In this document: one piece after another, positions 3,947 through 16,650 of the stretch
Layout of the letters: each line of letters starts with the position of its first letter
Position numbering within the stretch: position 1 is the stretch's first letter
Translations under genes and position numbers: made by a program
Origin: a virus
Taxonomy: Duplodnaviria > Heunggongvirae > Uroviricota > Caudoviricetes
Strand: one strand, 5' to 3'
DNA length: 25,283 bases
IMG/VR virus record: IMGVR_UViG_2529292829_000008
The notes under the pieces: generated by a model
What the model saw: only the letters and a program-made list of their open reading frames with translations
Database searches by the model: none
What the model was told of the DNA's origin: nothing

Positions 3947-4800
3947 GCACCATCCTGAAATGGGCGGGAAATAAACCCGCCATAATGTCCGAACTGAAAA
4001 AGCATCTTCCTGCTGGCCCGCGACTGGTTGAACCTTTCGCGGGTTCCTGTGCTGTGATGATGGAGACGGATTACCCCAGCTATCTTGTTGCGGATATTAA
4101 TCCTGATTTAATCAACCTCTATAAAAAGGTTGCTGCTGATTGTGAGGCGTTTATATCTCGTGCCAGAGCTTTATTTGAGGAAGCAAACAGGGAGGTGGCT
4201 TATTACAACATAAGGCAGGAGTTTAATTACTCCACTGAAATTACTGATTTCATGAAAGCGGTATATTTTCTGTATCTCAATCGTCATGGTTACCGTGGGT
4301 TATGTCGCTATAACAAGAGCGGGTATTTCAACATTCCCTACGGTAATTATAAAAATCCGTATTTCCCTGAAAAAGAAATTCGCGCATTTGCAGAGAAAGC
4401 CCAGCGAGCAACGTTTATCTGCGCCAGCTTTGATGAAACGCTGGCGATGCTGCAGGGGGGGGATGTGGTGTATTGCGATCCGCCTTATGACGGTACGTTT
4501 TCCGGTTATCACACTGACGGCTTCACTGAAGATGACCAGTATCACCTGGCATCCGTTCTTGAACATCGGTCATCAGAAGGACATCCCGTCATTGTTTCTA
4601 ACAGTGACACATCCCTGATCCGTTCGCTGTATCGCAATTTTACTCACCACTACATCAAGGCAAAACGCAGCATCGGTGTGGCAGCTGGTGATAGTAAATC
4701 TGCAACAGAAATCATTGCTGTTTCCGGGGCGCGCTGCTGGGTGGGATTTGATCCTTCGCGTGGCGTAGATAGTTCTGCTGTGTACGAGGTGCGTGTATGA
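3943..4800 (+). CDS. dam: DNA adenine methyltransferase, Dam-like (D12 class N6-A MTase)
   Basis: From ATG 3943 (GGAGG SD): KWAGNK near the N-terminus, FAGSCAV (motif I-like), [15 protein letters not shown], and catalytic DPPY ([10 protein letters not shown]); near-colinear with E. coli Dam as I recall it. Confidence 0.88.
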
Positions 4801-7211
4801 GTCATGACGATATGAGCAACTCTAGCGGCTTTAACGAGGCCGCTGCATCATTTTCATGGAACGGCCCGAAAAAGGCCATTAACCCTTATCTGGACCCGGC
4901 GGAAGTTGCGCCGGAGTCTGCACTTTCAAACCTGATCACTCTGTATGTTGCCGATAACGAGCAGGAACAACTGCGCCGCGAGGCACTGAGTGAGCAGGTC
5001 TGGGAGCGTTATTTCTTTAATGAATCCCGTGATCCTGTCCAGCGCGAAATGGAGCAGGATAAGCTCATTAGCCGGGCAAAGCTGGCGCATGAGCAGCAGC
5101 GTTTTAATCCAGACATGGTCATTCTGGCTGACGTCAACGCCCAGCCTTCCCATATCAGCAAGCCGCTGATGCAACGTATTGAATACTTCAGCAGCTTGGG
5201 CAGGCCAAAGGCTTATTCCCGCTATTTGCGTGAGACGATTAAGCCATGTCTGGAACGACTGGAGCATGTACGCGACAGTCAGCTATCCACTTCTTTTCGC
5301 TTTATGGCAAGCCATGAAGGGCTGGACGGCCTGCTGATCCTGCCTGAAATGAGTCAGGATCAGGTAAAACGCCTGTCCACCCTGGTAGCTGCGCATATGA
5401 GCATGTGCCTTGATGCCGCTTGTGGCGATTTATATGCCACCGATGACGTTAAGCCAGAAGAAATCCGCAAGACATGGGAAAAGGTGGCAGCGGAAACCCT
5501 GCGACTGGATGTTATCCCGCCTGCGTTTGAGCAACTCCGCCGGAAAAGAAACCGCCGTAAACCAGTGCCCTATGAACTCATTCCGGGCTCGCTGGCGCGT
5601 ATGCTGTGCGCCGACTGGTGGTATCGGAAATTGTGGAAGATGCGTTGCGAATGGCGGGAAGAGCAGTTGCGTGCTGTCTGCCTGGTCAGCAAAAAAGCAT
5701 CTCCCTATGTCAGCTATGAAGCTGTGATGCATAAACGTGAGCAGCGCCGTAAGTCGATGGAGTTTTTCCGTTCTCATGAACTGGTGAACGAAGACGGAGA
5801 CGCGCTGGATATGGAAGATGTGGTAAACGCCAGCTGCAGCAACCCGGCGCATCGCCGCAATGAGATGATGGCCTGTGTTAAAGGTCTGGAGCTTATCGCG
5901 GAAATGCGCGGTGACTGCGCCGTTTTCTACACTATTACCTGTCCGTCACGTTTCCATTCCACGCTCAATAACGGCAGACCCAACCCGACCTGGAAAAACG
6001 CGACGGTAAGACAAAGCAGCGATTATCTGGTCGGTATGTTTGCTGCATTTCGTAAGGCGATGCACAAAGCCGGGTTGCGCTGGTATGGCGTGCGGGTGGC
6101 TGAGCCGCATCACGACGGCACAGTTCACTGGCACCTGTTGTGTTTCATGCGCAAAAAAGACCGCCGCGCCATTACTGCATTGTTGCGTAAGTTTGCTATC
6201 CGTGAAGACCGCGAGGAGCTGGGCAATAACACGGGGCCGCGCTTTAAGTCTGAGCTGATTAACCCGCGCAAAGGAACGCCGACAAGCTACATAGCGAAAT
6301 ACATCAGTAAGAACATTGACGGGCGTGGTCTGGCTGGCGAGATCAGCAAGGAAACGGGTAAATCTCTTCGTGATAACGCTGAATACGTGAATGCCTGGGC
6401 GTCTTTGCATCGTGTTCAGCAATTCCGCTTCTTTGGTATTCCGGGGCGTCAGGCTTACCGTGAACTGCGATTGCTGGCTGGTCAGGCGGCAAGGCAGCAG
6501 GGTGACAAAAAAGCAGGTGTGCCGGTACTGGATAACCCGCGCCTTGATGCCATTCTGGCTGCTGCTGATGCTGGTTGTTTTGCCACCTATATCATGAAGC
6601 AGGGAGGTGTACTGGTTCCCCGTAAATATCACCTCATCAGAACCGCTTATGAAATTAACGAAGAGCCGACCGCCTATGGCGATCACGGTATTCGTATTTA
6701 TGGCATCTGGTCACCCATTGCAGAGGGCAAGATCTGCACTCATGCAGTGAAGTGGAAAATGGTTCGTAAGGCCGTTGACGTTCAGGAGGCGGCAGCCGAC
6801 CAGGGCGCTTGCGCCCCTTGGACTCGTGGCAATAACTGTCCCCTTGCTGAAAATTTGAACCAACAAGGGAAAGACAAATCAGCTGATGGGGACTCCAGAA
6901 CGGATATTACCCGTATGAATGACAAGGAGTTGCACGATTACCTGCACAGTATGAGCAAAAAAGAGCGCCGGGAACTGGCTGCAAGGTTACGCCAAGTGAA
7001 ACCGAAACGGCGTAAAGACTACAAACAGCGAATTACAGACCATCAGCGACAGCAGCTCGTCTATGAACTGAAGTCCAGGGGATTTGATGGCAGCGAGAAA
7101 GAAGTCGATTTGCTCCTTCGCGGCGGCAGTATTCCGTCAGGAGCAGGCCTGCGTATCTTCTATCGGAACCAGCGTCTGAAGGAAGATGATAAGTGGCGGA
7201 ACCTGTATTAA
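4797..7211 (+). CDS. A: Replication initiation endonuclease (P2 gpA-type rolling-circle initiator)
   Basis: 804 aa; HUH motif ([10 protein letters not shown]) and paired active-site tyrosines ([12 protein letters not shown]), as in P2 gpA; start overlaps the dam stop. Confidence 0.9.
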
Positions 7212-7363: not shown

Positions 7364-7552
7364 ATGCAGGACTATTTTTTGGAGTCTTTGAAGCTTCAGC
7401 GCATTGATTTTTTTCTTAAGCTTGTAGCGGCTAGTGAGTGTAGTGATGAAGAGAAGGGGCTGGCTCTGCAGTGGGTTTCTGAATTGACTGATGAACTTAT
7501 GGCAAAAATCAGAAGCCACGAATACAACCGCTCAATGGATATCATCAGCTGA
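7364..7552 (+). CDS. Small hypothetical protein, first gene of the LexA-boxed operon (possible Tum-like antirepressor component)
   Basis: 62-aa ORF with strong AGGAGGA SD; immediately downstream of the LexA box and upstream of the DinI-like gene. Confidence 0.4.
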   Translation: MQDYFLESLKLQRIDFFLKLVAASECSDEEKGLALQWVSELTDELMAKIRSHEYNRSMDIIS

Positions 7553-7562
7553 GGTGACTTTT

Positions 7563-7796
7563 ATGCGCATTGAAATAATGATCGATAAAGAGCAGAAGAT
7601 TAGCCAGTCTACCCTGGACGCCCTTGAATCCGAGCTTTACCGCAATCTGCGCCCCCTGTATCCCAAAACGGTAATTCGCATTCGCAAAGGTAGTTCTAAC
7701 GGTGTGGAACTAACCGGACTGCAACTGGATGAAGAAAGAAAACAAGTGATGAAAATTATGCAGAAGGTGTGGGAGGACGACAGCTGGCTGCATTAA
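7563..7796 (+). CDS. dinI: DinI-family protein
   Basis: From ATG 7563 (GAGGTGA SD): MRIEIMIDKEQKISQSTLDALESELYRNLRPLYP...VMKIMQKVWEDDSWLH, resembling E. coli DinI (MRIEVTIAK...ILQETWE...) in length and motifs. Confidence 0.7.
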   Translation: MRIEIMIDKEQKISQSTLDALESELYRNLRPLYPKTVIRIRKGSSNGVELTGLQLDEERKQVMKIMQKVWEDDSWLH

Positions 7797-7988: not shown

Positions 7989-8324
7989 TTACGAATGATC
8001 ATTCTGTTTAGTCTTCATGAGAAAATCCCGAATCTTTGCCAAGTTTGAATTTTCGGGGATTGAATCCATGTACGGATCACGCTCAAACACTAATTGCTCA
8101 GATTCAACGAAAGCCTGCCACTCTACTGGGTCTAGCTCAAATCCCATTGCTGTCATATCACTTTCATCTTCCCCCTCGATCCAGTGGACTAAATAAAACA
8201 ATTCATCATCAGGAGAATCATCCTCACCATCAACAATATCAACATCGGTTACAGTGATACGTAGGGTGGGATCGATTTTTGAGACATAAATTCCTAACTG
8301 TGGTATAGGGGGAATATTGTTCAT
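7989..8324 (-). CDS. Highly acidic hypothetical protein (111 aa)
   Basis: ATG with AGGAG SD; roughly 26 Asp/Glu versus about 8 basic residues; AT-rich; located beside cos. Confidence 0.5.
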   Translation of the reverse strand: MNNIPPIPQLGIYVSKIDPTLRITVTDVDIVDGEDDSPDDELFYLVHWIEGEDESDMTAMGFELDPVEWQAFVESEQLVFERDPYMDSIPENSNLAKIRDFLMKTKQNDHS

Positions 8325-8703
8325 GGAAACTCCTTTTATTGGTGTTTGCTATTTGAATAAAAATACGCCAAACAGAGTGTTAACTGTGAATATGGAAAGA
8401 ATCGTTGTAAGTACCCCGCTTAGGTGTCCCATTCTATTTTAGAGGTTCTCGTGCATATGGATTATGTTATCTGAAAGCTAACTTCCGCTTCCCGTTCACA
8501 GCGAACATTCATCTTTGTAAACCCGTATGATCCGTTTTTCAAGTGGCCATTCAGATACGGATTTTCACTTCCTTGACAGTGCATGACTATGCTGCATGAA
8601 ATCGCATGATCGATTGAGGATCGTCTTTGCTCAGATCCGCCAGAACTGGCGGGCTTTTGCTCATGTCATGCATGTGCATGAAAACCACTGCATAAAGCGG
8701 GCA

Positions 8704-8722
8704 GGCGTGGCGGGGATACGAG
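8704..8722. other. Candidate cos site (P2/186-type cohesive end, cosN)
   Basis: GGCGTGGCGGGGATACGAG: the first 13 nt match the 19-nt cohesive ends of 186/P2 as I recall them (GGCGTGGCGGGGAAAGCAT / GGCGAGGCGGGGAAAGCAC); lies in a 475-bp non-coding region between the replication and packaging modules. Confidence 0.55.
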
Positions 8723-8799
8723 CGCGCGCATTGATTTCAAAAGATGAAATCAAGTGGTACGATAAGTAGGATTACTACCAATTCTCAAAGGGATGTCTC

Positions 8800-10497
8800 A
8801 TGCATAGAATTGTTAAAGCTCATCTTGATAACTTCGTGAAAAGTCACGGTATTGAAAATCATCAAGAGGACACGCAGTTCGAGCTATTTTGTAATAAAGC
8901 TTTGCTGTCTTCTCGTATAAGTATGGATTATGAAATTGACGATGTAACAACCGGGGCTGGTGATGATGGCATGGATGGTGTTGCCATCATAATTGATGAA
9001 GAATTGTGTATATCTTCTGAAGATGCTACTTCAATATTTTCCTCATTACGTAAAAATCATGATGTTGATATTGTTTTCATTCAATCAAAGCGTAGTGAGT
9101 CTTTTGATTTAGGTGATTTTTTAAAGTTTAAAGCTTCCGTTTTTAGATTTATAGAGGATTCTCCTTACTTATGTGTGGATGAAATTCAAAAAAATGCAAG
9201 GGAAGTTTTTGATGTCATAATAAAAAATGTACCTAAGATAAGAGGTGGGCGACCAACTTTTACTGCTAAATATGTTGCAACTGGTTTATATAAAAAACCT
9301 AAAGAGTTAGAGAATGCTCGGAAGTTATTTGCAAAAGAAATTGACGAGTTGGGGTATTTCTGTAATGTTAGCGTTGAGTTTGTTGATCGTGATGAATTAA
9401 CACGTACTTGGATTGATACTTATTCAGTTGTCAATGCTGAATTGCCATTATTTAGTAATGCACCACTTCCCAAAATTAATGGTATAGAAGAAGCTTATCT
9501 TGCTGTCGTTAAAGCAAAGGATTTTGTTGGTAATTTATTGATGACGGACGAGGGGTCTCTCCGTAATCATGTTTTTGTTGAGAACGTCAGGGCGTTCTTG
9601 GGAATTGATAATCCTGTTAACGCATCGATTGCTGAGACAATTAAAAATAAAGATGCCGCTTCACGATTTCCTGTTTTAAATAATGGAATAACAATTGTTA
9701 GTCCGGATGTAAAACTTCAAGGGAGTATTTTACATCTAGAAAATTTTCAGATAGTTAATGGCTGTCAGACATCAAATGTGCTTTACGAATGCCGCGATTC
9801 CTTAGATGATACGATGATGGTTAACTTGAAAGTCGTAGAGACATTAAACGAAGATGTTTTTTCAGAATTGGTTCGAGCGACTAACAGTCAGACTAAAGTT
9901 GATGAGACTCAGTTCTATTCTCTTCGTCCAATAATAAAGAAAGTAGAAGCGTACTTTGATACTTATGAAGGGCAGGATGGTCGTTTATATTTAGAAAGAC
10001 GTGAAAGACAATTTATCGGTAGAGATATACCTGCAGTTAGAGTATTTTCAGTTCATATGGCAGCTAAATGTGTAGCAGCTATGTTCTTCCGTCGGCCAGA
10101 TCTTTCATATAGATACCCTAAAAAAATGTATGAATTGTTGGCTGAGAAAATATTTTCTAATGATACCAAGGAGATTGTATTTTATTCAGCATGTTTAACA
10201 TTATATAGATTACACTTACTTACTTCTAATGCTGATATTCCACAAAATATCAGGAAGTACAAATGGCATTTAATGGCGGTAGTTGGTGCTTTAATTGCCG
10301 GAAAGGATGTGCCTAATTTTGGATCTAAGAAAATGGATGCGTATTGTAATAAAATCATCACTGAAATGACAAAGCATGGTGATAAAATAAAAGCTACTTT
10401 CCAGAAGGCTGTTGATATTGTTTTGTCAATTGATGATATCACTGATGATAGAATGAAAAGGCAAGCTATTTTAGAGGAAATGCTTGCCAAGATTTAA
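8800..10497 (+). CDS. Low-GC cargo protein, candidate AIPR-like abortive-infection / defence protein
   Basis: 565-aa ORF, much more AT-rich than the backbone; sits between cos and the portal gene; contains ...FPVLNNGITIVSPDV...ENFQIVNGCQTSNVLYE... (DNA about 9751-9774), which I recall as resembling the conserved NGxQT core of the AIPR family. ORF call is solid; family assignment is tentative. Confidence 0.55.
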   Translation: MHRIVKAHLDNFVKSHGIENHQEDTQFELFCNKALLSSRISMDYEIDDVTTGAGDDGMDGVAIIIDEELCISSEDATSIFSSLRKNHDVDIVFIQSKRSESFDLGDFLKFKASVFRFIEDSPYLCVDEIQKNAREVFDVIIKNVPKIRGGRPTFTAKYVATGLYKKPKELENARKLFAKEIDELGYFCNVSVEFVDRDELTRTWIDTYSVVNAELPLFSNAPLPKINGIEEAYLAVVKAKDFVGNLLMTDEGSLRNHVFVENVRAFLGIDNPVNASIAETIKNKDAASRFPVLNNGITIVSPDVKLQGSILHLENFQIVNGCQTSNVLYECRDSLDDTMMVNLKVVETLNEDVFSELVRATNSQTKVDETQFYSLRPIIKKVEAYFDTYEGQDGRLYLERRERQFIGRDIPAVRVFSVHMAAKCVAAMFFRRPDLSYRYPKKMYELLAEKIFSNDTKEIVFYSACLTLYRLHLLTSNADIPQNIRKYKWHLMAVVGALIAGKDVPNFGSKKMDAYCNKIITEMTKHGDKIKATFQKAVDIVLSIDDITDDRMKRQAILEEMLAKI

Positions 10498-10550
10498 TTA
10501 TACCTTGATATGTATATTAACGTGATTTTTTAAGTTGAATATCTAAGTAA

Positions 10551-10583
10551 AAAGAGTGCTTTTATTGTTAAGCACTCTTTTTT
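10551..10583. terminator. Bidirectional rho-independent terminator between the cargo gene and portal gene
   Basis: Perfect 11-bp inverted repeat AAAGAGTGCTT (10551-10561) / AAGCACTCTTT (10570-10580) with an 8-nt loop, followed by a T-run ending at 10583 and preceded by an A-run. Confidence 0.6.
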
Positions 10584-10584
10584 A

Positions 10585-11619
10585 TTAAGCTAACTCAAGG
10601 CTATATGTATTGAATTTAATAATGTCATCTTCTACCCACTCATTAATTTCTTTGATTCTTTCCTGTAAGGGGGTTAATTCGTTACGGACGAATACCTTGC
10701 TGGCTTTTTCAATATCGCCAAATCCACCAGTGTTTTGTGGAATAATGCCCATCATCTGCGGAGGAACTCGATGTGCTGCCATCATGTCATCGCGACTGAC
10801 ATTTTTGATATTCAGAAACTCATCCTTCGCCGCGACTTCTGACAACGGGATGATCTGAAGCCCGTCCTTTTTGCCGTTAGGCGAGTACATAAACAAATTG
10901 CGGAAGTTGCCTGGACCTTTGGCACTTTTCATCGCGTTGCGGAGGTTGTTTACATCTTCCTGGTTTTGCGCGGCGTCGGTCATGTACATGATGAAGCCTG
11001 CATGACTGCCGTTAATGTAATACTTCCGGCGGAACAGCGTGGCGGACTCGTTGAGCAGGGCTGACGGAATGACAGAAAGATAGCCGGGCAGGCCGTAGAT
11101 TTCTTGATTAATATCCGGCTCCATCAGGTGAAAAATGCTGCCTTTCGTGAACTGATACGGCTGCGTGGTCATGCCGTATTGCACAAACCAGTAGGTATCC
11201 AGGTCTAACCCGCGTCGGGGGTATTTTGCCAGCGCAGGCTCAAGGGCGATAACTTCACCGAATCGGTTCGTGCGTTTCTCCAGGTAGGCGTTACCAAATA
11301 CCAGATAGTCCTGCACAAAACGCGAAAAAGCCTGCTGGCTGAGCAGCGGGGGGGGGATGTAGGTACTGGTCAGAATGTTGCATTTCACCGCAATTGGTGA
11401 ACTGTGATGCACGGCGGCGCGGAAGGTGCGCGCCAGTCCGTCAAAGCTTACTGGCGGCTCATACCAGCGATCTGTCTGTAAGCATTCCACATAGTCCAGC
11501 AGTTCGCGGCGGTCCAGAACAGGAACGGGATCACCGAAGCTGAATGCTTCGGCTGTAGTCTGGCTTTTATGCTGAATCTGGGTCGTCGCCGCAGCGCGCT
11601 TCTTCTTACTCTTTCCCAT
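10585..11619 (-). CDS. Q: Portal protein (P2 gpQ-like)
   Basis: 344 aa, same length as P2 gpQ; ...SFDGLARTFRAAVHHSSPIAVKCNIL...FRRKYYINGSHAGFIMYMTDAA... is colinear with my recollection of gpQ. Confidence 0.92.
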   Translation of the reverse strand: MGKSKKKRAAATTQIQHKSQTTAEAFSFGDPVPVLDRRELLDYVECLQTDRWYEPPVSFDGLARTFRAAVHHSSPIAVKCNILTSTYIPPPLLSQQAFSRFVQDYLVFGNAYLEKRTNRFGEVIALEPALAKYPRRGLDLDTYWFVQYGMTTQPYQFTKGSIFHLMEPDINQEIYGLPGYLSVIPSALLNESATLFRRKYYINGSHAGFIMYMTDAAQNQEDVNNLRNAMKSAKGPGNFRNLFMYSPNGKKDGLQIIPLSEVAAKDEFLNIKNVSRDDMMAAHRVPPQMMGIIPQNTGGFGDIEKASKVFVRNELTPLQERIKEINEWVEDDIIKFNTYSLELA

Positions 11620-13385
11620 TAAAAAATCTCCACAATATTGCTGGTATTGGCGGATTCGCCCTGCAGCGGTTCGTTAAACAATGCGTGCATCGTTGCCCAG
11701 GCCAGATCGGCATGGCTGGCTTCTTCGCTGCGGCTGGCTTCATAGGTCGGGCGGTTGCCGCTAGCGGTGGTGGCCCGACGGATTGCCATAAAGGACTGCG
11801 CTATGTCGGTGTGCCCGGCGTCAAACTCCAGGCGGCGGTGGCTAATAATGTCGTAGGCCTTGAGTACCAGGGCGTTTTTAACGTTGGGATTGTAGACAAA
11901 CTCCCGGACGGCAGGAAAGAACGCTTTCACGTTCTCGTAAACCCCGTGGCCGACGCCAGTTGAGTCGATGCCGATGTATGTCACGTTGTACTGTTCGGTC
12001 AGTTTTTTGATGGCGTCAGCCTGGGCGCGGAAGTCCATCCCGCGCCACTGGTGACGTTCAAGAATGCGAAACTTGCCGCCCGGCACGGCTGGCGGTGCCA
12101 CCACCACGCATCCAGCGCTGTCGCCGTTTTGTGTACCTTTTGCCGGGTCATAACCGATCCACACTTCGCGCCAGCCAAACGGGCGTAGCGCCAGTGCATG
12201 AAAGTCGGTCCAGACTTCCCAGCTGTCCACCATGCACGCCTGCAGCTCGCTGAGCGGGAAGACGGACGCGAGATCGTCCACGAACTCACACATCAGCAGG
12301 TTCTGGTATTCGTCCGGGCTGTACTCCATGCGCAACTGGTCGAGATCGAACAGGTTACATCCGCCGCGCACCGCATCTTCCACGGTGACTATCTGGCGGT
12401 ATTGCCCGTCTGCGCACAGCAGGCCGGGGGCCAGATTGTTGTGGGACAGGTCGATGTCCACCTTATCGGCTTTGTTGCGCCCACGGTTGAACAGCGCACC
12501 GGACCAGAACGGATAAGCACTGTGGGTCAGGCTGGATGGTGTGGAAAAATAGGTCTGTCGCCATTTCTTGTGAATAGCCATACCGGAAGCTACTTTGCGC
12601 AGCTCCTGGAATTTCGGTATCCAGAAATATTCATCCAGATACAGGTTGCCGTGGTAACTCTGGGCAGTGCGGGCATTGGTGCCGAGGAAGTAAAGCGTGG
12701 CCCCGTTAGGAAGCACCATCGGATCGCCTTTCAGCTCCACCTCCACTTCTTTGGCGAAGTCGATGATGTACTGCTTAAAGACGTGGGCCTGAGCCTTGCT
12801 GGCGGAAAGGAAAATCTGGTTACGCCCGGTTAGCAGGGCGTCAATCAGGGCTTCACGGGCAAAATAGAAGGTCGCGCCGATCTGGCGTGACTTCAGCAGG
12901 TTGCGGATGCGGTTGGTTTTTCCGGCTTCCCACCAGTGGCGCTGGTAGTTGAACATGGAGGAATGGAAGATTTCTTCCAGCTTCTCAATCTGTTCATCGG
13001 TGAAAACGTTCTTTTCCGGCTGACGGCGCGGGCCTTTGTTGCGGTTGGCGACGTTAGGGTTTAAGTCGGCTTCGTTGCCGCCATTGTTAAACTTGCCGAT
13101 GCGCGCGTGGCGCTCCGACTGGCGCGCCAGCAGGTCAATCTCTTTGAAATCTTTCCCTTCTTTGTGCTCCTTCATAATGAGCTGGCAGTAGCGGGCGGCG
13201 GTGGTGAGCTGCATCTGATCCAGCGGCCCATAGTCACCCCACTTGTCGCGTTTCTTCCAGCTGTGAACGGTTGCAACTTTCTCGCCCAGCATTTCAGCAA
13301 TGCGGGCTACGCGATATCCCTGAAAGTACAGCAGCATGGCCTGCCGACGGGGATCGAGATCTGCGGGTGTCAGTGTGGTGTTCAT
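11619..13385 (-). CDS. P: Terminase large (ATPase) subunit (P2 gpP-like)
   Basis: 588-aa ORF directly upstream of and overlapping the portal gene start; length and position match P2 gpP. Confidence 0.9.
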   Translation of the reverse strand: MNTTLTPADLDPRRQAMLLYFQGYRVARIAEMLGEKVATVHSWKKRDKWGDYGPLDQMQLTTAARYCQLIMKEHKEGKDFKEIDLLARQSERHARIGKFNNGGNEADLNPNVANRNKGPRRQPEKNVFTDEQIEKLEEIFHSSMFNYQRHWWEAGKTNRIRNLLKSRQIGATFYFAREALIDALLTGRNQIFLSASKAQAHVFKQYIIDFAKEVEVELKGDPMVLPNGATLYFLGTNARTAQSYHGNLYLDEYFWIPKFQELRKVASGMAIHKKWRQTYFSTPSSLTHSAYPFWSGALFNRGRNKADKVDIDLSHNNLAPGLLCADGQYRQIVTVEDAVRGGCNLFDLDQLRMEYSPDEYQNLLMCEFVDDLASVFPLSELQACMVDSWEVWTDFHALALRPFGWREVWIGYDPAKGTQNGDSAGCVVVAPPAVPGGKFRILERHQWRGMDFRAQADAIKKLTEQYNVTYIGIDSTGVGHGVYENVKAFFPAVREFVYNPNVKNALVLKAYDIISHRRLEFDAGHTDIAQSFMAIRRATTASGNRPTYEASRSEEASHADLAWATMHALFNEPLQGESANTSNIVEIF

Positions 13386-13527: not shown

Positions 13528-14361
13528 ATGACAGTGAAAGCAAAGCGTTTTCGCATCGGGGGGGAAGGTGCCACCACCGACGGGCGCGAAATCCAGCGTG
13601 AATGGCTGGAACAGATGGCAGCCAGCTACAACCCGGCGGTGTATACCGCGCTGATTAACCTTGAGCACATCAAGTCTTATCTGCCGGACAGCACCTTTAA
13701 CCGCTACGGCAAGGTGACGGCGCTGTTTGCTGAAGAAATCACGGAAGGTCCGCTGGCGGGCAAGATGGCGCTGTATGCCGACGTTGAGCCAACGGAATCC
13801 CTGGTGGCGCTGGTGAAAAAAGGCCAGAAATTATTCACCTCTATGGAAGTCAGCCCGAAGTTCGCTGATACGGGCAAAGCCTACCTGGTCGGCCTGGCTG
13901 CCACTGATGACCCTGCCAGTCTGGGTACGGAAATGCTGACATTCAGCGCCAGTGCAGCTCATAACCCGCTGGCAAACCGCAAGCAGAATCCTGCAAATCT
14001 CTTTACCGCTGCAGAGGAAACGGTGATCGAACTGGAAGAAATCCAGAATGACAAACCGTCCCTGTTTGCCCGAGTCACGGCGTTGTTTACCAAAAAAGAG
14101 CAGTCCGATGACGCCCGGTTCTCTGATGTGCATAAGGCCGTGGAGCTGGTCGCCACTGAGCAGCAGAACCTGAGCGCACGCACCGAAAAATCCCTGTCTG
14201 AGCAGGAAGAACGCCTGTCTGAGCTGGAGACTGCCCTGCAGGCACAGCAGACCGCCTTTAACGAACTGGTGGACAAGCTGAGCCAAGAAGACAGCCGCCA
14301 GGACTACCGCCAGCGTGCAACAGGCGGTAACGCCCCCGCTGACACTCTGACCAATTGCTGA
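13528..14361 (+). CDS. O: Capsid scaffolding protein (P2 gpO-like)
   Basis: 277 aa; ...RIGGEGATTDGREI...INLEHIKSYLPD...YLVGLAATDDPASLGTE...SDDARFSDVHKAV...ATGG...TNC, colinear with P2 gpO. Confidence 0.9.
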   Translation: MTVKAKRFRIGGEGATTDGREIQREWLEQMAASYNPAVYTALINLEHIKSYLPDSTFNRYGKVTALFAEEITEGPLAGKMALYADVEPTESLVALVKKGQKLFTSMEVSPKFADTGKAYLVGLAATDDPASLGTEMLTFSASAAHNPLANRKQNPANLFTAAEETVIELEEIQNDKPSLFARVTALFTKKEQSDDARFSDVHKAVELVATEQQNLSARTEKSLSEQEERLSELETALQAQQTAFNELVDKLSQEDSRQDYRQRATGGNAPADTLTNC

Positions 14362-14377
14362 TGGAGCACAAAACCTG

Positions 14378-15436
14378 ATGAAGAAGAATACCCGCTTTGC
14401 TTTTAACGCTTACCTGCAGCAGCTGGCGCGTCTGAACGGTGTGGCAGTTGAAGAACTGTCCAGCAAGTTCACCGTAGAGCCGTCCGTGCAGCAGACATTG
14501 GAAGACCAGATCCAGCAGTCCACCGCTTTCCTGACGCTGATTAACGTCACGCCAGTGACTGAGCAGTCCGGTCAGCTGCTGGGGTTGGGAGTTGGCAGCA
14601 CCATTGCCGGAACCACTGATACCACCGCGAAAGAGCGTGAACCTGTCGATCCGACGCTGATGGTCGATGTGGAATATAAATGCGAGCAGACCAACTTTGA
14701 CACGGTACTGACCTACGCGAAGCTGGACCTGTGGGCGAAGTTTCAGGATTTTCAGGTGCGTATCCGTGACGCCATCGTGAAACGTCAGGCACTGGACCGC
14801 ATCATGATCGGCTTTAACGGCGTGAAGCGTGCGAAAACCTCCAACCGTAGCGAAAACCCGCTACTGCAGGATGTGAATAAAGGCTGGCTGCAGAAAATCC
14901 GTGAGGATGCACCGGATCACGTCATGGGCAGCACCACCACGGGCGGTGAAACCACACCGGGTGCGGTGAAAGTCGGGAAAGGTGGCGAATATGCCAACCT
15001 GGATGCCGTGGTGATGGATGCCGTTAACGAGCTTATCGACGTGGTCTATCAGGACGATGACGATCTGGTGGTGATTTGCGGTCGTGAACTGCTGTCTGAC
15101 AAGTATTTCCCGCTGGTCAACAAAGAGCAGGAAAACAGTGAAAAACTGGCTGCCGATATGATCATCAGTCAGAAACGCATGGGTGGCCTGCAGGCCGTGC
15201 GTGCGCCGTTCTTCCCGCCGAATGCGCTGCTGATCACCCGTCTGGATAACCTGTCCATCTACTGGCAGGAAGACACCCGCCGCCGTTCAGTTATCGACAA
15301 CCCGAAACGTGACCGGATTGAAAACTTTGAATCCGTTAACGAAGCCTATGTGGTTGAGGACTACCGCTGCGCCGCACTGGTGGAAAACATCCAGATTGGT
15401 GATTTCAGTGCCGCCGCAGCCGAAACCGGAGCGTAA
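14378..15436 (+). CDS. N: Major capsid protein (P2 gpN-like)
   Basis: 352 aa; ...RFAFNAYL...FTVEPSVQQTL...LDLWAKFQDFQVRIRDAIVKRQALDRIMIGFNGVKRA...ISQKRMG... closely matches P2 gpN. Confidence 0.92.
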   Translation: MKKNTRFAFNAYLQQLARLNGVAVEELSSKFTVEPSVQQTLEDQIQQSTAFLTLINVTPVTEQSGQLLGLGVGSTIAGTTDTTAKEREPVDPTLMVDVEYKCEQTNFDTVLTYAKLDLWAKFQDFQVRIRDAIVKRQALDRIMIGFNGVKRAKTSNRSENPLLQDVNKGWLQKIREDAPDHVMGSTTTGGETTPGAVKVGKGGEYANLDAVVMDAVNELIDVVYQDDDDLVVICGRELLSDKYFPLVNKEQENSEKLAADMIISQKRMGGLQAVRAPFFPPNALLITRLDNLSIYWQEDTRRRSVIDNPKRDRIENFESVNEAYVVEDYRCAALVENIQIGDFSAAAAETGA

Positions 15437-15439
15437 TCC

Positions 15440-16090
15440 ATGAGCCTGAGTCCCGCACGGCAGCATCGCCTGCGCGTTCAGGCTGAACAGGCCGCCCGCG
15501 AGGGCGGCAGTGTTCGCCACGCATCGGGCTATGACCTGATGCTGCTGCAACTGGCGGAAGACCGCCGCCGTCTCAAGGGCGTTCAGTCCACGGTCAAAAA
15601 AGCGGAAATCAAGGTGGAGCTGCTGCCGAAGTACGCCGCCTGGGCAGAGGGTGTCCTGGCTGCCGGAGGCGCTCAACAGGATGACGTGCTGATGTACGTG
15701 ATGCTGTGGCGCATTGATGCCGGAGATTATGCCGGAGCGCTGGAGATCGGGCGTCATGCCCTGCGTCATGGCTGGGTGATGCCACTGGGTAACCGCAACG
15801 TGCAGACCGTGCTGGCAGAGGAAATGGCAGACGCCGCGCAGAGCGCAATGCTTGCCGCCACCGGCTTTGATGCCGATCTGTTGCTGCAGACGCTGGAGCT
15901 GACAGACGGTCTGGATATGCCGGACCAGTCACGGGCACGTCTGCATAAAGCGATTGGCGCTGTCCTGAGTGAAAGCAATCCGGCTTCCGCCCTTAATCAT
16001 CTCAACCATGCGTTACAGCTCGATCCCCGCTGTGGCGTGAAAAAAGACAAACAGCAGCTGGAGCGCAGACTGCGCAATGACAGCCGCTGA
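15440..16090 (+). CDS. M: Terminase small (endonuclease) subunit (P2 gpM-like)
   Basis: 216 aa; ...QDDVLMYVMLWRIDAGDYAGALEIGRHALRHG... matches P2 gpM (...QDDILMTVMLWRLDTGDIAGALEIARYALKYG...). Confidence 0.9.
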   Translation: MSLSPARQHRLRVQAEQAAREGGSVRHASGYDLMLLQLAEDRRRLKGVQSTVKKAEIKVELLPKYAAWAEGVLAAGGAQQDDVLMYVMLWRIDAGDYAGALEIGRHALRHGWVMPLGNRNVQTVLAEEMADAAQSAMLAATGFDADLLLQTLELTDGLDMPDQSRARLHKAIGAVLSESNPASALNHLNHALQLDPRCGVKKDKQQLERRLRNDSR

Positions 16091-16185: not shown

Positions 16186-16650
16186 ATGAAGTTTGTTGCG
16201 CCAGAACAGGCACCGGAACAGGCGGAAATCATCAGAAATACGCCGTTCTGGCCTGATGTGGACCTGTCGGAGTTTCGCAGCGTGATGCGCACTGACGGCA
16301 CGGTGACGCAGCCGCGTTTAAAGCAGGTTGCGCTGTCAGCAATTTCGGAGGTCAACGCAGAGCTGTATGAGTTTCGCAGACGCCAGCAGATGCTGGGGTA
16401 TGCCTCGCTGGCAGAGCTTCCGGCGGAACAGCTGGACGGCAAAAGTGAGCGCATTCAGCACTATTTCAACGCGGTTTACTGCTGGGCACGCGCCATGCTC
16501 AACGAACGTTACCAAGACTATGACGCCACGGCGTCTGGTGTGAAGCGGGGCGAGGAACTGGCGGAAGCAAGCGGGGATTTGTGGCGTGACGCCCGCTGGG
16601 CCATCAGCCGGGTGCAGGATGCGCCGCACTGCACAGTGGAGCTTATCTGA
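16186..16650 (+). CDS. L: Head completion / stabilisation protein (P2 gpL-like)
   Basis: 154-aa ORF with AGGAG SD, in the gpL position between M and X. Confidence 0.85.
   Translation: MKFVAPEQAPEQAEIIRNTPFWPDVDLSEFRSVMRTDGTVTQPRLKQVALSAISEVNAELYEFRRRQQMLGYASLAELPAEQLDGKSERIQHYFNAVYCWARAMLNERYQDYDATASGVKRGEELAEASGDLWRDARWAISRVQDAPHCTVELI

Follow-up and report, generated by a model that had tools for sequence, protein, structure and literature searches.

Phages of the P2 type package monomeric circles. The cos site of the P2 family contains a 55-bp core (Ziermann and Calendar 1990, cited in PMC5694545 and PMC5247547), for which these two papers give no limits, and cos is reported to be all that P4 and P4-like satellites have in common with their helpers (PMC9122126). 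The genome announcement of phage SEN8 prints its cos as ggcgtggcggggatacgag, assigned during annotation, and analogy has led to related ends of the ACGAG type being assigned to SEN4/SEN5 and to Stenotrophomonas phage Smp131. A more remote counterpart is the cos of phage lambda (cosQ-cosN-cosB, with the repeats R1–R3 and the IHF site I1), in which the nicking site is likewise flanked on one side by several repeats, the presumed targets of the small terminase; it has no sequence relation to the site described below, and its overhang measures 12 nt instead of 19 nt.

In this study, we describe positions 8580–8729 of a 25,283-nt stretch of DNA (IMG/VR record IMGVR_UViG_2529292829_000008; referred to in its full length as the window), which we are highly confident represent the cos site, at which DNA is packaged and the cohesive ends are formed, of a P2-family prophage of the Fels-2 type. 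The host of the prophage is probably E. coli. The feature is already known, and a cos site is an ordinary, textbook component of P2-family phages.

Materials and methods

The region was aligned with the circularised junctions of P2, 186 and SEN8 and with the internal cos regions of Fels-2, SopEPhi, RE-2010, Klebsiella phage 4LV2017, Yersinia phage vB_YpM_MLG42, E. coli phage vB_EcoM-813R9, Erwinia phage ENT90 and a Klebsiella Gegevirus. IMG/VR was scanned with the 22-nt core pattern AAAGYGGGCNGGCGNGGCGGGG, which retrieved at least 119 cos regions with enough flanking sequence. The 119 listed loci are all distinct over positions –160 to +30, and a greedy filter merging sequences of >88% identity reduced them to 74 representatives; since the loci were selected by the 22-nt pattern and are phylogenetically related, locus counts overstate the independent support. 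Offsets are given relative to the start of cosN, and P4-like loci were recognized by tblastn to P4 genes.

Results and discussion

The alignment delimits a conserved block of about 150 bp (8580–8729) with sharp edges, which opens at the first TGCATG, closes at GCGCGC and is bordered by unrelated cargo on either flank. Within the block, three distal direct repeats (R1–R3) are followed by a spacer, a dyad, the inverted repeat TCATGCA-NN-TGCATGA, the motif AAAAC, cosN and GCGCGC. The block is kept in P2, 186, P4, SEN8, Fels-2, SopEPhi and RE-2010 and in relatives from Klebsiella, Yersinia and Erwinia. BLAST against phage records matched 83–89 records; most among the matches listed cover approximately 8578–8730, and the weaker ones among those listed cover only the cos-proximal part of this range. 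The first-pass annotation of the window had read this region as cos and had proposed its alignment with the cos regions of other P2-like phages. In that alignment the repeats are conserved and the flanks unrelated, and the reading is borne out both by the conservation in related phages and by the fixed offsets of GCAT motifs from cosN (in about 90% of the 119 listed loci).

The predicted cosN is located at 8704–8722 on the plus strand and corresponds to a 19-nt 5' cohesive end with the sequence GGCGTGGCGGGGATACGAG, placed by its homology with P2 and 186 and its identity with SEN8. No second copy of the 19-mer exists in the window, even at three mismatches. It is identical to the annotated ends of 186 and P2 at 15 and 14 of the 19 positions, respectively, and equals bases 1–19 of the SEN8 record, where they are labelled 'putative cos site'. 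The same 19-mer is present in SEN8, Fels-2, SopEPhi, RE-2010, the Yersinia relative MLG42 and the E. coli relative 813R9; that of Klebsiella phage 4LV2017 deviates at a single position. P2, 186 and the window have in common a GC-rich cosN of 19 nt that starts with GGCG(A/T)GGCGGGGA, the 55-bp core, three distal TGCAT motifs, a proximal TGCAT(G/T)AAAAC, the GCGCGC block and an adjoining portal gene. They differ at cosN positions 14, 16, 17 and 19 and at the base that follows, where the window has TACGAG followed by C, and P2 and 186 have AAGCAT or AAGCAC followed by T. The 19-mer had been described as diverging from those of 186/P2 in its last six positions; it does differ from 186 there, but at only four of the six (AAGCAT vs TACGAG). 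The variant cosN that had been suspected is real but not new, as it is the published cos of SEN8 and belongs to the commonest class among the loci listed.

The cut positions and the virion ends of the phage in the window are predicted from these comparisons. PhageTerm analysis of Serratia phage BZS1 yielded a 12-nt 5' overhang, GCATTGCGCGCC (PMC7556043), which resembles the right part of an AGCAT-type cosN plus the adjoining GCGCGC and not the classical 19-mer. In view of this 12-nt overhang, the cut positions of P2-type phages are possibly non-uniform; the BZS1 result may reflect different cutting in some relatives, or an artefact.

The left edge of the module is formed by R1–R3 (8580–8609, plus strand), which comprise TGCATG at 8580, TGCATG at 8593 and CGCATG at 8603. 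Their start-to-start spacing is 13 and 10 bp, about one helical turn, and the distal repeats are also found in P2, 186 and P4; homology with E. coli 30EVA1 and with Fels-2 starts exactly at 8580/8581. On the plus strand of the window, GCATG starts at 8581, 8594, 8604, 8670 and 8676, with an inverted CATGC at 8667. These six motifs within 110 bp constitute the densest GCATG/CATGC cluster of the window (Poisson P ~5e-8, ~1e-5 when corrected for all windows; background of 43 in 25,283 bp on both strands). The five GCATG motifs noticed in the first reading are therefore present and more densely clustered than expected by chance, and two elements that it had missed can be added: a further TGCAT at 8689 and a perfect inverted repeat, TCATGCA-TG-TGCATGA, at 8666–8681, the right arm of which opens the 55-bp core. 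A depletion of GCATG in the window as a whole was also considered (43 observed vs 98 from shuffles) and was refuted by an independent-base expectation of 49.0 and a maximal-order Markov expectation of 47.8.

Among the 119 listed loci, GCAT is found at –123, –110, –100 and –28 from the start of cosN in 91, 105, 104 and 117 cases, respectively, and all four GCAT motifs are present in 107 loci; in the flanking DNA, GCAT occurs at a background rate of 0.0044 per bp. The motifs of the window at 8581, 8594, 8604 and 8676 sit exactly on these four offsets, and the motif at 8670 is specific to the window, which has ATGCATG where its relatives have ATGCAGG. The proximal inverted repeat is reflected in TGCAT at –29 (116 of 119 listed loci) and ATGCA at –36 (87 of 119). 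Both the TGCAT repeats at –124, –111 and –101 and the inverted TGCA repeat at –37 to –24 are common to helpers and P4-like satellites. Because the repeats are conserved at fixed offsets and common to satellites, they are most likely terminase recognition elements, in agreement with the first-pass annotation, which had named them as candidates for this role.

Downstream of the spacer lies a dyad with a perfect 7-nt inverted repeat (8637–8658, plus strand), which reads CCGCCAG-AA-CTGGCGG followed by GCTTTT. The small GC hairpin with a T-run had been reported at exactly this place: the stem arms are CCGCCAG (8637–8643) and CTGGCGG (8646–8652), and GCTTTTG comes next. The core of the dyad that is conserved in the family, GCCAGNNCTGGC (8639–8650, i.e. 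–65 to –54), has the form GCCAG-NN-CTGGC and is present with at most two mismatches in 96 of the 119 listed loci.

The hairpin could instead be mainly an intrinsic terminator that ends rightward transcripts, arriving from the replication/tum side or from the cargo, before they enter cos, and not a packaging element. We consider this a serious possibility, though one that falls somewhat short of probable, and it is compatible with cos if termination is a second role. The stem and U-run match the pattern of a terminator (seven pairs, then CTTTTG), and the stem of the relatives is stronger, with 8 bp (GCCCGCCA/TGGCGGGC) followed by TTTT. Among the loci listed, 62 of the 65 members of the ACGAG class have a T-run after the dyad, vs 13 of 54 other loci. 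The outer stem pairs covary, the pair at (–69, –50) being G:C in 60 and C:G in 26 of the listed loci, and stem pairing drops from 64% to 22–36% when the partner column is shifted by one to three positions. In phage 186, moreover, a terminator (t95b) is annotated a short way upstream of the cos block. Against a terminator as the main function, GCCAGNNCTGGC is conserved in sequence and not merely in pairing, and the core is retained in 186, P4 and the satellites without a T-run after it, 186 having its separate terminator upstream. In the window itself, the stem is down to seven pairs and folds as RNA with –13.3 kcal/mol (z = –1.4; 16 of 200 shuffles at least as good), and the nearest upstream ORF (7989–8324) is on the opposite strand. 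For the ACGAG class, hairpin and T-run would probably also halt rightward transcription before cos, in addition to the dyad's place in the packaging module.

The GCCAG-NN-CTGGC dyad is missing from P2, in which all three distal TGCAT repeats are retained, as is the 55-bp core; the dyad is therefore not universally essential. In P2 (NC_001895), the starts of the leftward old-tin transcript are annotated at 33424 and 33426, about 150 bp before cosN and near the distal repeats, which places the old-tin promoter by inference where the dyad stands in other phages.

The spacer between R3 and the dyad (8608–8637) contains three GATC sites (8608–8611, 8619–8622 and 8634–8637); the arrangement GATC-N7-GATC is typical of ACGAG-class cos sites, and in the listed loci GATC peaks near –100 and –85. 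The spacer is probably not needed for packaging, because it is not common to P4-like satellites of the same class.

The counterpart of the 55-bp core was placed at 8675–8729 (plus strand) by the match between P2 and P4, which are identical to each other at 52 of the 55 positions of this stretch. The window shares 42 of the 55 positions with P2, 44 with 186, 43 with P4 and 53 with SEN8, the latter agreeing at 138 of 150 positions across the entire module. Only the last of the five GCATG motifs first noticed falls inside the core, yet R1–R3, the dyad and the inverted repeat's left arm, all of which are outside it, are conserved as well. The conserved signal may accordingly extend over about 150 bp, far more than the 55 bp of the published core, which would be mildly new, although older literature may cover it. 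The right edge of the module is the GCGCGC block (8724–8729), which occurs at +20 to +25 in 103 of the 119 listed loci and at which the homology between phages stops.

The window most closely resembles the group of SEN8 and Fels-2 (Fels-2, SopEPhi, RE-2010, 4LV2017, vB_YpM_MLG42 and vB_EcoM-813R9), which has the same offsets of R1–R3, the same GATC spacer, hairpin with T-run and inverted repeat, and in which cos is likewise situated between cargo cassettes. Differences private to the window are ATGCATG in place of ATGCAGG, which creates the extra GCATG at 8670; ACTGCAT in place of ACTACAT, which creates the TGCAT at 8689; and ATCCGCC in place of GCCCGCC, which shortens the stem. The flanking cargo of the window also differs from that of the group.

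P4 has the same architecture as the window, with three TGCAT motifs, a dyad (CCGCGCC/GGCGCGG), TGCATTAAAAC, cosN and GCGCGC. Eleven of the 119 listed loci are P4-like, although one of them (L061) matched the P4 integrase alone. Three of these P4-like loci (L045, L061 and L077) belong to the CTACGAG class; their R1–R3 are nearly base-for-base those of the window, and they share the dyad, the inverted repeat, cosN and GCGCGC but have neither the GATC spacer nor the T-run. The exact ATACGAG 19-mer was found in none of the satellites among the loci listed. All DNA of the P4-like satellites outside the module is unrelated to the window. Given that helpers and satellites reportedly have cos alone in common, the packaging signal is best sought among the elements present in both, and spacer and T-run would seem to be features of the phage lineage. 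Turning to lambda, no match to the IHF consensus WATCAANNNNTTR within one mismatch is present on either strand between 8560 and 8760, and an IHF element of a lambda-type cosB was thus not found there.

The 119 listed loci fall into 18 cosN classes, of which that of the window is the commonest (ATACGAG, 42 loci), followed by ATAGCAT (20), CTACGAG (18), AAAGCAT (12) and AAAGCAC (9). The right half of cosN comes in discrete classes, namely ACGAG followed by C vs AGCAT or AGCAC followed by T. Among the listed loci, gpP shows a median identity to the gpP of the window of 98% for members of the ACGAG class, compared with 63% for those of the AGCAT/C class. Membership in a cos class follows the lineage of the terminase (gpP and gpM) and of the head genes, and the same is true of all genes tested. 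The covariation of class and terminase was rejected as evidence of specificity, since the capsid protein gpN and the replication protein gpA follow the class as well, and the link between class and terminase is consequently inseparable from shared ancestry. If the distal elements were needed for recognition by gpM and the classes were not interchangeable, the two might define packaging compatibility groups of helpers and satellites, a suggestion that we regard as doubtful and offer only tentatively, and which older literature may already cover.

The genes around the module were identified with Pfam. To the left of cos are the replication protein gpA (4797–7211, plus strand), a DinI/Tum-like protein (7491–7796, plus strand) and cargo; to the right are an AIPR protein as cargo (8800–10497, plus strand), the portal protein (gpQ homologue; 10585–11619, minus strand; Phage_portal), the large terminase (gpP homologue; 11619–13385, minus strand; Terminase_6N, Terminase_6C and Terminase_5), the scaffold (gpO; 13528–14361, plus strand), the major capsid protein (gpN; 14378–15436, plus strand), the small terminase (gpM homologue; 15440–16090, plus strand; Phage_term_smal, E = 2e-40) and the head completion protein (gpL; 16186–16650, plus strand). 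The gene order is that of P2 and 186, the same layout is found in Fels-2 and SEN8, and gpQ and gpP are transcribed toward cos. The locus combines the features by which a cos of the P2 family is recognized, i.e. homology of cosN, the 55-bp core, the position between A and Q, its own gpP and gpM, and the sharing of the site with satellites.

The DinI-like ORF encodes 101 aa as listed, with the DinI domain at residues 38–100. Its true start is probably internal, because relatives in E. coli and Fels-2 are annotated with 77 aa; the situation recalls the nested Tum/DinI starts annotated in 186.

Packaging would proceed as follows. The small terminase gpM, presumed to read the cos signal, would, judging by their conservation, bind the repeated TGCAT elements and possibly also the dyad, and would thereby place the large terminase gpP, presumably the nuclease and ATPase that cuts cosN, on its target. 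There, gpP would nick the top strand 5' of G8704 (8703/8704) and the bottom strand opposite 8722/8723, which, by homology with P2 and 186, would result in 19-nt 5' overhangs. Of the two chromosome ends, the terminase would presumably hold the one with the recognition block.

Alternatively, the site could be an inactive relic in a prophage that no longer packages DNA. The weaker stem of the hairpin, as compared with the relatives, and the few private substitutions in the window would fit such decay, but every conserved element is intact and at its canonical offset, and the ORFs of portal, TerL, scaffold, capsid, TerS and gpL are all full-length, which makes a relic improbable.

Two further readings would do without packaging. 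The first-pass annotation had pointed to a TTGACA hexamer at 8573–8578 and had suggested that the repeats might instead mark a small transcript. The hexamer is present, is a perfect –35 element and is separated by about 60 nt from the terminator-like hairpin downstream, from which an sRNA of about 60–80 nt could be construed. It lies, however, just outside the conserved block and is replaced by TTGGCT or TAGACA in the closest flanks, and a scan for a sigma-70 promoter found no acceptable –10 partner. An Rfam search of 8300–8900 at E <= 1 gave no match, and the motifs are fixed to the cut site and common to phages and satellites with unrelated upstream DNA. The suggestion of a small transcript consequently did not hold up, and we consider an sRNA very improbable.

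Even less credence can be given to the reading that the region encodes a small protein. A 57-codon ORF does exist in the window (8596–8769), and CDSs across cos are annotated as 'hypothetical protein' in Yersinia phage vB_YpM_MLG42 (L011, 2518–2661) and in Klebsiella phage ST512-KPC3phi13.6 (L014, 1517–1666). On the other hand, 29 of the 64 listed relatives of the same class have an in-frame stop inside the block, and none of the reading frames stays open in the majority of these relatives; in view of these stops, the two annotated CDSs are probably spurious. The ORF has no Pfam match and runs across cosN into non-homologous DNA, and no CDS is annotated over the cos block in two RefSeq stretches of E. 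coli (65COLEC and 30EVA1).

The locus was partially matched in 1316 of 5426 E. coli genomes, in which it forms a mosaic of cassettes found in different strains; the exact junction between left flank and cos had no exact match in representative genomes. Strain 65COLEC agrees with the window in its left cassette and in cos as far as about 8755, where different cargo takes over. In 30EVA1, the left cargo is another one, and agreement with the window starts at exactly 8580 and includes the AIPR gene. In E. coli genomes, the breakpoints of recombination are thus at 8580 and about 8755. Since the two strains each share one side with the window, the cassettes on either side of cos exchange independently. 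Judged from these sequences, cos is a fixed pivot between two independently exchanged cassettes, in agreement with the published hotspot adjacent to cos (PMC9122126).

The cargo slot between cos and portal is occupied by the AIPR gene (565 aa; Pfam E = 1.5e-43). Fels-2 has a gene of the same length in its place, with 83% DNA identity over the shared stretch 8581–10695; the counterpart in RE-2010 is annotated as 'AIPR family protein, prevents superinfection', and a frameshift is annotated for that of E. coli 30EVA1. In 65COLEC, the right-hand cargo is an ImmA/IrrE peptidase pair and not AIPR. The left cargo slot (7989–8324 on the minus strand and 8330–8579) contains a 111-aa ORF (7989–8324) without a Pfam match, whose counterpart in 65COLEC is the RefSeq hypothetical protein WP_001059831.1 (111 aa; 99% DNA identity). 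A perfect 9-bp inverted repeat (8731–8753; TTGATTTCA-N5-TGAAATCAA), the left arm of which is absent from Fels-2, directly adjoins the cos module on its right and precedes the AIPR gene. The repeat may represent an operator or a scar of recombination.

For annotation, the cos site fixes the genome ends and the orientation of the prophage and marks the pivot between two cargo (defence) cassettes. While the understanding of P2-type packaging is otherwise unchanged, the alignment suggests for engineering purposes (P2/P4 cosmids and transducing particles) that the signal comprises about 150 bp and not 55 bp, and that helpers of the Fels-2 type may need a signal of the ACGAG class.
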